In this document: positions 29,872 through 34,709 of the stretch, one piece after another | How the letters are laid out: every line of letters starts with the position of its first letter | How positions within the stretch are numbered: the first letter of the stretch is position 1 | NCBI GenBank assembly: GCA_964434885.1 | Contig: CAYSWQ010000007.1 | Coordinates: 1-34,899, forward strand | DNA length: 34,899 nt | Origin: an uncultured Methanosarcinales archaeon | GTDB lineage: Archaea > Nanobdellota > Nanobdellia > Woesearchaeales > GW2011-AR9 | Direction: 5' to 3' | The notes under the pieces: generated by a model | Told to the model about the DNA's origin: nothing | Database searches by the model: none | The model's input: only the letters and a program-made list of their open reading frames with translations | Made by a program: the position numbers and the translations under genes

Positions 29872-30270
29872 TTATTTTTTAGTAATAATTTCTCTCAACT
29901 TTTTAATAATTCCGATAATACGAGTTTTATTGAGCTCTAAAAAATCTGCTTTAACAAAAAAACCATCATAAGCAATTTTATTTCTAATAACTCGCAATTC
30001 TTTAATTAAATGGGTTTCTTGAAGAGAAAAAACAGTATGTTCTTTTATCAAATAATCCAATAACTCTTTATGTGATCCTTCCCCTACAGTTTTATATCCT
30101 TCTTGTAATAGTAAAACTGTTGTTAATTCACGAATTACTTCATAATAATCCTTAACAATTAAGGACGCAAATTTTTGGGAATCTAACGTTTGAATCATTT
30201 CCAAAGTAACATCCACCATCTTAAGAAGAGAAGAAATTTTATTTTGATCAGGAGTAGTTTTAATTAACAT
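29872..30270 (-). CDS. HEPN-domain protein (partner of MNT)
   Basis: YY...R......L...GYK......H and LRVIRNKIAYDG (Rx4Y variant); overlaps the MNT gene. Confidence 0.75.
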   Translation of the reverse strand: MLIKTTPDQNKISSLLKMVDVTLEMIQTLDSQKFASLIVKDYYEVIRELTTVLLLQEGYKTVGEGSHKELLDYLIKEHTVFSLQETHLIKELRVIRNKIAYDGFFVKADFLELNKTRIIGIIKKLREIITKK

Positions 30271-30806
30271 TTACTTACCTCCAAATAACCTTTTAAAATA
30301 ACTCCATTAAGAATATTATTTTTTAATTCTAAACTTAATTTAGTAAATTTGGGTTCAAAAAATAAATTAATTTTTCTTTTCAATGAGTTTTCATAATTAT
30401 TTAAATTAATTTCAACTTCTTTAGCTCCAATGTATAAATCAATATCACTATTCTCAGTATCTTCTCCTCGAGCAGCAGAACCAAATAAAACAATTACTTG
30501 GGGCAAACATTTATCATAAATCGTATTCACCAAACCTGAATCATTAAGTCTAATCAAGATATCTAATTTTTTATAAAACATAAAAATTTCATTATCTCGG
30601 TTAGCTAAATAAATAGGATAATTTTGTACTCTGTTTTTCTTTTCTAAAACAAAACATTCTTTAACTAATTCTTTCAAATAATTTTTAACAGAAGTAGGTG
30701 CTAATTTAATCTCTCTACTAATTTCTCTTAATTGCAAACCACCTTCAGCTAAAGGTTTATCAAAAAATAATTGCAAAACTTTCCATTTGTTATTATTTTG
30801 TAACAT
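30264..30806 (-). CDS. wHTH plus minimal nucleotidyltransferase (MNT) antitoxin-like protein
   Basis: LREISREIKLAPTSVKNYLKEL (HTH) and LFGSAARGEDTENSDIDL; ATG 30806 lies ~25 nt from TATA 30831-30838. Confidence 0.88.
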   Translation of the reverse strand: MLQNNNKWKVLQLFFDKPLAEGGLQLREISREIKLAPTSVKNYLKELVKECFVLEKKNRVQNYPIYLANRDNEIFMFYKKLDILIRLNDSGLVNTIYDKCLPQVIVLFGSAARGEDTENSDIDLYIGAKEVEINLNNYENSLKRKINLFFEPKFTKLSLELKNNILNGVILKGYLEVSKC

Positions 30807-30838
30807 TTGTAATATAATTATTACAACTGATATATAAA
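30807..30838 (-). promoter_or_regulatory. MNT-HEPN promoter with palindromic operator
   Basis: TTGTAAT-N6-ATTACAA (30807-30826) between the TATA box (30831-30838) and the start codon. Confidence 0.65.
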
Positions 30839-30846
30839 TGTTACGG

Positions 30847-31542
30847 TCAAAACTCACCTAAACTCGTCTGATTCTTAGCATTAATCAAATTTTGAAATGG
30901 CTTCCAAGTTTTCCTAAACAAAAAACCAAATTCTGGTTTGTCAAAATTTTCTTTCAGAAAAATCTGTGTTTTTTCATCACTTAAATACCCAGATCCAAAA
31001 TCCACTTGTAATGCTTGTTTCAAATCTTCAATCTCTCGGTCCCTAGTAACTTTTGCCAAAATTGAAGCTGCCCCAACTACAATATAATTCATATCAGCTT
31101 TATGTTCTACAATCAATTCCGCTTTTCTACTTACTTTCTGACTTAACTTATTAAAAAAATAATCTCTATAAGCAGTCACATTAGTACTCGGACAATCCAC
31201 AATTATCTGATCTACTTTAAACTTATTTACAATTCGAGAAGAAGTATCTGCTTCCAACCAATTCAAATTAGAATTTGGATTCTTTAGATTTTCATCAACC
31301 TCTTCTGCCGAAACCACTTCAATCTTAAAATCAACAGCTAAATCTTTAACCTGCTCAAATAAATCTTCTCTTTTATCCTTACTCAACAACTTACTATCTT
31401 TTACTCCCAATTCTTTTAATTTCGGAATATCTTCCTCTTTGATTACAATTCCTGCCATCACTAGGGGACCGATGAGTGGACCTCACGGCTTTAACAATTA
31501 ATTATTAAATCTACCGGCTTCATCAACCCCACAGATAAGCAT
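30847..31542 (-). CDS. rnhB: Ribonuclease HII, split: exon 1 31542-31511, exon 2 31483-30847 (222 aa if spliced)
   Basis: Joined exons read MLICGVDEAGRGPLIGPLVMAG...DSKLL...LNWLE...VDC...EHKAD...VGAASILAKVTRD...FGSGY.SD...PIP box QTSLGEF. Confidence 0.93.
31484..31510 (-). other. 27-nt BHB-type (tRNA-splicing endonuclease) intron in rnhB mRNA
   Basis: Minus strand GC-CGGU-AG^A-UUUAAUAA-UUAA-UUGUUAAA-GCCG-UG^A-GG: 4-bp helix CGGU/GCCG, 3-nt bulges AGA and UGA, 8-bp intron stem. Contains in-frame TAA and TGA. Excision restores GGT AGA GGT (GRG). Confidence 0.88.
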
Positions 31543-32564
31543 TACTTCACCATTATTTTCTTGTTTGTTTTTAATTTGACCCATGTTTTATCCTCTTCTC
31601 TTTTTATTAGACCAAGATTGACTAATTCTGTTAATCTGTTGTGAACTGTCCCACAACAAACACTCACTTCTTCAGACAATTCTTTTGTTGTTTTTAAAAT
31701 ATTTAATAGATTTAAGTATTTCTGTTTTACAGAAGATATGACTATTAAATTTTGATCTTTTCTAACCCAATAAACTAAACTTCTAACTCTAAACCATTTA
31801 ACTTTATTTTCTTTTTTCAAATCAATCAAAACATCACTAACTCTAGCAGGAGAACGACTGAATATTTCAGCAAGTTCTTGTCTATTTTTTGGTTCAATCA
31901 GTTTTTTATAAATAAACTTCTTCAAAAAATTAGCACTATAATGATACTCTTTAAATTGTTGGTATATTAATTGAAATTTTTCATTTTTCTCGGGATGAAG
32001 TTCTGCTATCTTTATTTTAGCCAATTTATCCCAACTTTCTCTTCCCCAAATTTCATAAGATCTATTTCTTTCTTTAAATGAAAAATTAATATTTAAATTA
32101 ATTAAAATGTCCTCTATCCATTTAACTGGCTGTTTTTGAGCAATTCTCACTATCCTGTGACATTTATTCCCGGATTTAATATTTCCTTCACCAGCAAAAA
32201 AACCACGCAAAATATCTGTGTGGTTACTTTTATCTTGTAAAACAACATCCACTAATTCTTTCCAATTTTTGTTCAATTTAACAGAAGCAAAACGATAAAT
32301 GTAATAAGGTTTATTTGCCCTTAAATCCATATAATCTTTGAATTTAATATTTTCAATTCTTTGTAAATTATTGTTATATTTAGAATAAGAATAGATACGT
32401 GGCCTAAATTCGACGCTTTTGTAAAGATAACTCATCACTTTGTGAAAAAATTTAATCAATTCAAAACAATTATTTGTAAATGTAACTTCTGCTGTCGTCT
32501 TATTATCCCCTTCTGCCAACCAAAGACCAACACATTCAGCTATCTCTTTTTTATTTATTTTCAT
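31542..32564 (-). CDS. Free-standing double-motif LAGLIDADG homing endonuclease with two C-terminal wHTH domains
   Basis: VGLWLAEGD and LRGFFAGEGN motifs, FTNN; HTHs RQELAEIFSRSPARVSDVLIDL and TKELSEEVSVCCGTVHNRLTEL; GAGGT SD 32573-32577; TAATG overlap with the rnhB start. Confidence 0.88.
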   Translation of the reverse strand: MKINKKEIAECVGLWLAEGDNKTTAEVTFTNNCFELIKFFHKVMSYLYKSVEFRPRIYSYSKYNNNLQRIENIKFKDYMDLRANKPYYIYRFASVKLNKNWKELVDVVLQDKSNHTDILRGFFAGEGNIKSGNKCHRIVRIAQKQPVKWIEDILINLNINFSFKERNRSYEIWGRESWDKLAKIKIAELHPEKNEKFQLIYQQFKEYHYSANFLKKFIYKKLIEPKNRQELAEIFSRSPARVSDVLIDLKKENKVKWFRVRSLVYWVRKDQNLIVISSVKQKYLNLLNILKTTKELSEEVSVCCGTVHNRLTELVNLGLIKREEDKTWVKLKTNKKIMVK

Positions 32565-32574
32565 TTTTAATTAC

Positions 32575-32780
32575 CTCAAAACTTCTATTTGTTTCAAAGT
32601 TTGGAGTTTCCTAAAAAAGATGTAAGTGAGTGAAACTGTCTAAAAGATTTCTCTTATTTTTGAGAGAAAATCTTAATTTAACAGTTTTGTGTCGCCTCTT
32701 TTTCACAACATCTTAAAGACAGTAAAATATATGACTTCTACCTGCACTTGTCCAGTTGTCCACTAACTAATTTATAAAAG
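32575..32780 (-). promoter_or_regulatory. TATA box and structured ~185-nt 5' leader of the LAGLIDADG gene
   Basis: TTTATAAA at 32771-32778; stems aagatgt/acatctt, aaactgt/acagttt, aagattt/aaatctt, ctct/agag; hairpin 32575-32606 overlapping the SD. Confidence 0.6.
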
Positions 32781-34418: not shown

Positions 34419-34709
34419 TTATAACCCAAAAGCTTCAGTAAACTCCCGAATCCGTCTAAATTCTGCTAAAAAACCTGAACCTTTCTCAGTTAAAGCCACC
34501 ATTTTAGAAATCTTCTTTTTCTTCCCTTGAATTTCTTGAATTTCAATCATTTCTTTATTGATTAATTCCTGTAAATAACTATTCAATAACTTATGAGATA
34601 AATTTGACTTATACATTAAATGGGTTGGTTTAATTTGACCTCCTTTATTTTGAATAGCTTGCAAAATATCAAAAACCAATTCCAATCTACTTCTTCTTGA
34701 ACTGCTCAT
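34419..34709 (-). CDS. Archaeal winged-helix transcriptional regulator (ArnR1/HTH_45-like)
   Basis: RRSRLE.V.DIL, KPTHLMYKSNLS...YL.EL, LTEKG..FL. Confidence 0.88.
   Translation of the reverse strand: MSSSRRSRLELVFDILQAIQNKGGQIKPTHLMYKSNLSHKLLNSYLQELINKEMIEIQEIQGKKKKISKMVALTEKGSGFLAEFRRIREFTEAFGL

Follow-up and report, generated by a model that had tools for sequence, protein, structure and literature searches.

A putative rnhB-specific homing cassette joining a free-standing LAGLIDADG endonuclease to a BHB mini-intron in archaea

The rnhB locus and the described homing systems

In the collaborative homing of phages, as far as the accessible text of the reports goes, a nuclease gene lies beside a small intron that lacks an open reading frame (ORF) and interrupts a protein-coding gene at its most conserved codons, nuclease and intron are inherited jointly, and cleavage at the insertion site has been demonstrated (PMC3984707; PMC10055350). 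For phage T4, the accessible part of a study of MobA and the 50-nt bypass insert of gene 60 describes a nuclease within its target gene, a short insert that shields the site, repeated insertion at one place, and decay or replacement of the nuclease while the insert persists (bioRxiv 10.1101/2022.08.31.505936). In archaea, an intron with a bulge-helix-bulge (BHB) structure occurs in the cbf5 pre-mRNA of Crenarchaeota; its origin has been called unclear, since a nuclease gene would not fit into so short an intron, and the available text of the paper mentions no nuclease adjacent to it (PMC2738675). General background on archaeal introns is provided by the available portions of two further papers (PMC6125680; PMC11291895). 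Here, we analyse a stretch of 34,899 nt (the window), contig CAYSWQ010000007.1 of assembly GCA_964434885.1 from an uncultured archaeon of the Nanobdellota, in which the gene of a LAGLIDADG-type nuclease directly precedes rnhB, the gene of ribonuclease (RNase) HII, and in which 27 extra nucleotides interrupt rnhB. The window is contig C7 of the host genome (1.07 Mb, 92% complete).

Our comparisons indicate that this locus is probably a copy of an rnhB-specific homing cassette with intron-based immunity. The cassette would comprise a promoter, a free-standing LAGLIDADG endonuclease with two winged helix-turn-helix (wHTH) domains, a replacement 5' end of rnhB and a BHB mini-intron spliced by the host. 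As in phage collaborative homing, the nuclease gene is free-standing, and next to it a small intron without an ORF interrupts a protein-coding gene where its codons are most conserved (in 62 of the 77 readable metagenome loci described below); joint inheritance may underlie the strong linkage, the scattered introns and the polyphyletic nucleases. As with MobA and gene 60, the nuclease sits within its target gene, a short insert would shield the site, insertion seems to have been repeated at one place, and the insert persists where the nuclease decays or is replaced. In contrast to the phage introns, which are ribozymes, the rnhB intron is a BHB intron of 20-46 nt of the type processed by the tRNA-splicing endonuclease EndA. 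It resides in a cellular archaeon, its nuclease combines a LAGLIDADG fold with two wHTH domains, and the cassette also carries a new 5' end of its target gene. The T4 product is split into two chains, whereas rnhB leaves a short stub and restarts. The cassette would thus work like both phage systems, although we do not consider it a strict member of either, because its insert belongs neither to the group I introns nor to the bypass elements and because cleavage, demonstrated for phages, is a prediction for rnhB. The rnhB intron is of the same kind as that of cbf5, but in a different gene and in different phyla. A literature search, with most subscription journals and supplements outside its reach, retrieved no report of an rnhB intron or of an archaeal mRNA intron with a free-standing nuclease gene as its neighbour.

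The insert in rnhB

The nuclease gene, rnhB and the insert are all on the minus strand. Exon 1 of rnhB (31511..31542) starts at the TAATG overlap with the nuclease gene and encodes M-L-I-C-G-V-D-E-A-G plus the AG of an Arg codon. The insert (31484..31510) thus follows the D-E-A-G codons and the first two Arg bases, and its 27 nt contain two in-frame stops; once they are removed, the reading completes R and continues with G-P-L-I-G-P in exon 2, the body of RNase HII (30847..31483; Pfam RNase_HII, E 1.7e-33; TIGR00729 above its cut-off). The insert and its flanks can fold into a BHB, with a central helix CGGT/GCCG formed by positions 31516-31513 of the exon and a 3' strand at 31489-31486, two 3-nt bulges, AGA (31512-31510) and TGA (31485-31483), and an 8-bp hairpin with a tetraloop (arms 31509-31502 and 31497-31490). 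Outside the bulges, pairing between the exons (31464..31530) completes a relaxed BHB through a single C-G pair (C31517-G31482), an internal loop and an 11-bp helix (31530-31520 with 31475-31464). EndA cuts after the second base of each bulge, and cutting by this rule yields precisely the intron 31510-31484 and restores the reading frame. Taken singly, the fold of the window sequence is suggestive, not decisive: the BHB conformer is 0.5 kcal/mol less stable than the minimum-energy fold, and the pairs of its central helix have probabilities of 0.26-0.56.

The stronger evidence comes from a set of 70 distinct inserts; metagenome loci contributed 56 and genome loci 15, one insert being common to both. 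They are 20-46 nt long (median 31), and removal of each restores the same protein motif. All four central-helix pairs form in 63 of them and three of four in the remaining seven, while the helix changes together with synonymous codons of exon 1 (AGGA/TCCT, TGGA/TCCA, CGGG/CCCG, GGGC/GCCC and others). Counted from the start of the Arg codon, the introns occupy three registers, +2 (61 inserts), +4 (7) and +1 (2), each with its own helix; both 3-nt bulges are retained in all three, and removal by the bulge rule restores frame and motif in each. In the main register, full pairing was observed in 55 of the 61 distinct inserts, whereas 10,000 reshufflings of the partners gave 16 on average and never more than 28; this control does not preserve the relatedness among inserts. 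The parser also took the best-pairing register at each locus, which favours pairing, although the frame-restoring register is set by the protein motif. Of the flanking helices, the inner one has at least four of five pairs in 67/70 inserts and the outer C-G pair is present in 60/70, followed by the distal exon-exon helix of the relaxed form. The exon-exon duplex is more stable in the 14 intron alleles of the host family (-14.3 kcal/mol) than in 27 intact ones (-8.8 kcal/mol; Mann-Whitney p 1.2e-5, with kin that are not independent).

The inserts would interrupt the reading of rnhB if left in the message. The frame is shifted by 49 of the 70, and the 21 that keep it all contain a stop; overall, a stop in the frame of exon 1 lies within the intron in 67/70, against ~54% expected when the in-frame inserts are shuffled, so that an unspliced rnhB mRNA would terminate at once. 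Selection for stops specifically in the in-frame introns is not supported, given that frameshifting (46/49) and in-frame inserts (21/21) do not differ (p 0.55), although both exceed the shuffles (0.54).

The host appears equipped for such splicing. Its genome encodes one EndA (PF01974, single match, G000:C6:9645-9905, E 1.2e-28), and ARAGORN predicts introns in 13 of its 19 tRNAs. In several DPANN lineages that have many disrupted tRNAs, EndAs of the α4 type have been reported to carry an L3 loop (PMC5829648), which makes processing of a relaxed BHB plausible. At 27 nt, the insert is not a self-splicing group I intron, and it has no Rfam match at E<=1. Because of the covariation, the host EndA and the cbf5 precedent, we consider it very likely that the insert is a BHB intron removed by splicing.

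It is extremely improbable, in our view, that the insert stays unspliced, whether as a bypass element of the T4 gene 60 type, as a lesion in a pseudogene backed by an RNase HIII-like neighbour, or as an assembly artefact. The hairpin, the stop codon immediately after the break and an intact rnhC-like gene at 29870-29073 could be read in this way. Nevertheless, matched take-off and landing triplets are found in only 8/70 inserts, the 4-bp helix covaries, the 3-nt bulges are kept in three registers, the exons are intact, and as many as 70 distinct versions recur. Ribosomes skip the T4 insert, according to the accessible part of that study, whereas the rnhB insert has the geometry of BHB splicing (bioRxiv 10.1101/2022.08.31.505936).

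Pattern-based scans for further introns were of limited use. A BHB scan of the host genome (G000) returned 2071 motifs, 84 of them joining ORFs, in a noisy output in which a recognisable motif was restored, as judged by eye, at rnhB alone. The insert pattern, when scanned across the collection, retrieved mostly intact rnhB genes and chance matches, the real ones among the matches listed being L035, L053 and L136. Across the order, a pattern that catches only the TGA-bulge type occurred in 3/401 genomes, a count that does not estimate intron frequency.

The nuclease and its linkage to rnhB

The nuclease gene (31542..32564, minus strand) encodes 340 residues. In its AlphaFold model (pLDDT 92.8), the motifs GLWLAEG and GFFAGEG terminate two helices (residues 5-18 and 112-126) with the putative catalytic residues E18 and E126, and residues ~215-340 form two C-terminal wHTH domains, a feature absent from a preliminary description of the window made from its sequence. 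The best Foldseek matches are WhiA, E-DreI, the bI3 maturase and I-DmoI, with E-values of 1.1e-6 for full-length WhiA (the top match), 4e-6 for I-DmoI and 4e-5 for I-Tsp061I, and with probability 1.00 for I-DmoI, E-DreI and bI3, as befits a double-motif LAGLIDADG fold, whose domains follow the order α-β-β-α-β-β-α. At the sequence level, the Pfam LAGLIDADG_3 match is weak (E 0.0026, below the cut-off), and a search of PDB sequences returned weak wHTH matches and no LAGLIDADG match. We regard the ORF as a putative monomeric double-motif LAGLIDADG endonuclease. Of 2016 candidate proteins, 377 fall within its family at E<=1e-8, the closest named relatives being from Woesearchaeota/Nanoarchaeota. 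The equivalents of E18 and E126 are both conserved in 87/87 ORFs, a figure weakened by the use of peptides beside or containing both Glu as seeds of the metagenome search. I-DmoI and I-Tsp061I share the fold and are likewise associated with EndA-type introns; unlike the rnhB nuclease, both are encoded within BHB introns of rRNA genes, and the two wHTH domains are missing from them.

The WhiA match, the two wHTH domains and the constant position before rnhB also fit a domesticated WhiA-like DNA-binding regulator of rnhB (LAGLIDADG fold plus HTH), with the intron as an unrelated feature of the gene. We consider this very improbable. Domesticated LAGLIDADG proteins of the WhiA/DUF199 class have lost their catalytic acidic residues and are stably and vertically maintained. 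The putative nuclease does not fit this class: it keeps both Glu, occurs in just 8/114 genomes of the host family (with a strong match in 13/401 genomes of the phylum sample), decays frequently and is accompanied by insertion scars; such a regulator would, moreover, leave the linkage with the intron unexplained.

The nuclease TAA (31544-31542) overlaps the rnhB ATG at 31542, and 31 nt separate the nuclease stop from the insert. An alternative in-frame rnhB ATG lies at 31584, within the conserved Trp328 codon of the nuclease; this Trp-codon ATG, at position -43, is the most frequent ATG start among the relatives (18 loci), and an ATGA start is found in 15 loci. In one lineage (G014, loci L156/L167; G084, L155/L170; G596, L265), the reading frame of the nuclease continues across rnhB exon 1 and reaches its stop codon within the intron. 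Splicing would there yield a fusion of nuclease and RNase HII, provided that translation does not begin at an internal start. The preliminary description had placed a double-LAGLIDADG gene with both acidic residues outside an intron of BHB type in conserved rnhB codons, with a stop overlapping the rnhB start and an insert ~32 nt away; the structural model, the measured distance and the covariation agree with each of these points.

The linkage of nuclease and intron was examined first in the host family, in which 14 of 114 genomes carry the insert, 88 have an intact site and 12 could not be resolved. Seven of the eight family nucleases directly precede an intron-bearing rnhB, the eighth (G130) being cut by a contig end. 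The nuclease is thus present at 7/14 intron alleles and absent from the other seven, against 0/88 intact alleles (Fisher p 1.9e-7, with kin treated as independent). Among metagenomes, the best 80 of 165 stretches encoding relatives of the nuclease were considered, some of which duplicate each other or family genomes; three were cut off, and the rnhB N-terminal motif directly follows the nuclease in all 77 readable ones. An intron was parsed in 61 of these, one has an intron truncated where the contig ends, and 15 are intronless; the nuclease stop is 22-39 nt from the intron in 60 of the 61. Outside the family, the pattern is the same: in the phylum sample (401 genomes, 13 strong matches), the nine nucleases from other families all precede rnhB, eight of them with an intron; in a class of Thermoplasmatota, the nuclease occurs in 5/197 genomes, always before an intron-bearing rnhB; and both strong matches among 201 Micrarchaeota genomes, inspected by eye, are arranged likewise. 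The preliminary description had proposed that the two parts form a bipartite unit and would co-occur across genomes. Their distribution is indeed not independent, and linkage and stubs speak for a unit, but the pairing is not obligate, as both the intronless nucleases and the nuclease-less introns show, nuclease lineages have been exchanged at a resident intron, and the unit is larger, including a promoter and a replacement 5' end of rnhB. In the order of G596, the intact rnhB pattern is unmatched in 50/111 genomes, some of which may hold further introns.

Two kinds of evidence point to the codons presumably attacked. A Met-led stub of the rnhB N-terminus lies at most 200 nt upstream of the nuclease gene in 8/87 cases, compared with 0/66 control windows and at most two in shuffles. 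The stubs end in G-I/L-D, D-D/E or D-E-A, a few bases short of the intron site, which argues that the cassette entered rnhB here and brought a new 5' end. A cassette with a complete rnhB start would therefore rebuild its own target unless the site were altered, and the site is in fact altered at the 15 intronless nuclease loci. None of them has an uninterrupted GCN-GGN-AGA-GG site, against 18/61 alleles of a comparison order (p 0.016), and 9/15 have Ala>Ser or Gly>Ala replacements against 4/61; this baseline was counted by eye, with nuclease status unchecked per genome, and was matched to the intronless loci by gene context only. When the insert is removed in silico, most intron alleles give the site frequent in nuclease-free genomes. 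Together, these comparisons make it highly likely that the nuclease targets the D-E-A-G-R-G-P codons of rnhB.

The intronless loci admit another reading, in which an active nuclease targets rnhB, immunity is due to exon codons (or to a distant cut) and the intron, ~30 nt away, hitch-hikes by co-conversion. The 15 intronless loci all fall in a single 25-row nuclease clade mixing both states, and the intron alleles do have distinctive exon codons, their Arg codon being AGA in 60/61. However, without its insert an intron allele would mostly present the very site of nuclease-free genomes that the intronless nuclease loci lack, while three registers within 4 nt and stub breakpoints just upstream converge on the same few codons. 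We therefore think hitch-hiking rather unlikely and prefer intron-based immunity.

More distant LAGLIDADG relatives do not share the rnhB target, as ten weak loci in nine genomes and L308 adjoin other genes. Loci L269 (G595) and L271 (G330) are tail to tail with what we take, by eye, to be a PEP synthase-like gene, L274 (G157) and L276 (G331) lie downstream of a presumed topoisomerase VI A-like gene, and L308 (G1066) lies upstream of a presumably RtcB-like gene bearing an intein. These neighbours are candidates for other targets.

History and proposed cycle of the cassette

The introns are scattered in the host family. On a 40-row tree of rnhB bodies, 13 of the 14 intron alleles (G119 was dropped from the protein set) need 12 state changes and are rejected as monophyletic (AU p 1e-4), and intron-plus genomes are a minority in eight multi-genome genera. 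The family nucleases are rejected as a single clade (AU p 5e-6, for a grouping chosen after the first tree and with a long branch concerned), that of G014/G084 being sister to a nuclease from another order (support 99). Both the rnhB and the nuclease trees are quick trees. Around the site, G083 and G084 are 96% identical over 48 nt but 74% farther downstream, and G083 combines flanks and an intron of G084 type with a nuclease remnant resembling another lineage. In G014, G083, G279, G650, G689 and G698, the nuclease is broken or truncated and the intron kept. Comparison of these loci indicates that nuclease lineages have been exchanged at a resident intron. Two of the genomes with the intron only preserve further traces: in G002, rnhB opens on the nuclease tail of the G014/G084 lineage (M-T-E-K-G-K), which suggests that its intron arrived with a nuclease, and the N-terminus in G110 is similar to the stub found upstream in its congener G112, as excision between duplicated rnhB starts would leave it.

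These histories also suit a different account, in which the intron is the remnant of a nuclease-containing BHB intron, or is ancestral and often lost, and the nuclease came later and no longer moves it. Half of the family introns lack a nuclease, and G083 joins flanks and intron of G084 type to a remnant of another nuclease lineage. In the accessible texts, turnover is named as another way to explain the collaborative-homing loci of phages (PMC10055350), and rRNA introns without an ORF can have arisen by deletion (PMC2738675). Yet no large or ORF-containing rnhB intron was found in the 102 resolved family genomes, precise loss would be demanded in 88 of these, similar intron sequences are found on unrelated rnhB bodies, and the G002 rnhB start again suggests arrival with a nuclease. 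Among the unresolved family genomes, no ORF-containing intron was found either, an apparent split in G067 being an assembly gap. We consider this account improbable as a general explanation, although it is partly compatible with the cassette model as the history of individual loci.

Several points weigh against the cassette model itself. The Fisher tests count kin as independent, and an independent-pairs test on the 40-row subset found four supported pairs and none opposite, but was underpowered (p 0.25). The intron is dispensable in 15/77 nuclease loci, and Ser variants occur alongside introns too (5/70). The nuclease tree follows host groups at a broad scale, in agreement with the rnhB tree, and much of the transmission may be vertical or within lineages. 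The identity of G083 and G084 around the site could reflect constraint on RNA structure instead of co-conversion. The choice of search seeds and the post hoc grouping mentioned above count here as well.

Upstream of the nuclease gene, the window contains a signal (32724..32764, minus strand) composed of a tandem GTGGACAA/CTGGACAA, GTGCAGGTAGA and then a TATA-like box (32733-32724). A second TATA-like box, noticed by eye farther upstream (32770..32779, minus strand), is possibly constitutive or the original rnhB promoter. As the preliminary description had stated for rnhB, no TATA-like box was seen outside the nuclease upstream region, judging by eye and by motif comparison and not from a dedicated archaeal promoter scan. 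The core motif, with at most two mismatches, lies upstream of 18/76 nuclease loci and of 0/35 nuclease-less rnhB genes. The same signal recurs in the host genome (G000 C3:11328, C3:21485, C3:19690, C19:11913, C20:8504, C33:431, C39:4433, C39:3136 and C50:4971), where it precedes a 92-aa gene and, going by names that we presume by eye, a Hef-like helicase, three other LAGLIDADG-like ORFs, and integrase-like and Bro-N-like genes. The shared form, a tandem GTGGACAA, a GTSCAGGTAGA-like element and a TATA box, thus stands before repair-type genes as well as before several mobile ones, four LAGLIDADG-like ORFs among them. In this way, selfish nucleases may plug into a DNA-damage regulon.

The surroundings of the locus differ in part from those of its relatives. 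A wHTH (HTH_45) gene (34419-34709, minus strand) is the habitual upstream neighbour of rnhB in the host family; in the window, a response regulator, a CxxCxxCC gene and the nuclease come between the two. Downstream, the RNase HIII-like gene (minus strand) lies ~1 kb from rnhB and is also close downstream of rnhB in G002, G014 and others. Between them lie wHTH-nucleotidyltransferase and HEPN-like genes, a pair of the MNT-HEPN type (29872-30857, minus strand), which does not occupy the equivalent position in G002 and G014.

Under the cassette model, the nuclease would recognise ~20 bp over the D-E-A-G-R-G-P codons of an intron-less rnhB and cut at or beside the Gly-Arg-Gly codons. As the scars suggest, the break would be repaired off cassette-bearing DNA, its right end recombining by homology into the rnhB copy of the cassette and its left end recombining upstream or joining illegitimately, in which case the old rnhB start would be left as a stub. 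In the loci compared, the rebuilt site is never intact beside the nuclease, being split by the BHB insert in ~80% of loci or carrying codon changes, and this would protect it. Consistent with the covariation, the host EndA and the cbf5 precedent, the tRNA-splicing endonuclease and a ligase would excise the insert from the mRNA, allowing RNase HII to be made. Finally, the comparisons suggest that the nuclease decays or goes while the intron remains, with which another nuclease lineage can re-associate.

In practical terms, plain ORF calls drop the catalytic D-E-A-G N-terminus of intron-bearing rnhB genes, that of the window included, and the nuclease family offers several hundred natural LAGLIDADG variants sharing one predictable target.

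More broadly, at least 70 distinct BHB mini-introns in one rnhB motif, in genomes of three phyla (Nanobdellota, Micrarchaeota and Thermoplasmatota), display the stages of a life cycle as insertion scar, intact cassette, decayed nuclease and intron alone. Tentatively, LAGLIDADG-wHTH cassettes could be a general vehicle, and possibly the birthplace, of archaeal EndA-spliced mRNA introns. The same speculative proposal would take in four further features: the registers +1, +2 and +4 fall within the length of one 4-nt overhang; each intron repeats the end of exon 1 as a quasi-palindrome, which fold-back repair of a break made by the nuclease itself would produce; the cassette uses a promoter of DNA-repair type and RNase HII, a core enzyme of genome maintenance, would depend on tRNA splicing; and, in one lineage, splicing would switch a free nuclease to a nuclease-RNase HII fusion. 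The linked nuclease and mini-intron suggest a route by which such introns spread into archaeal protein-coding genes, and this route of tiny protein-spliced introns is directly testable with one protein, two short DNA substrates and one short RNA substrate.

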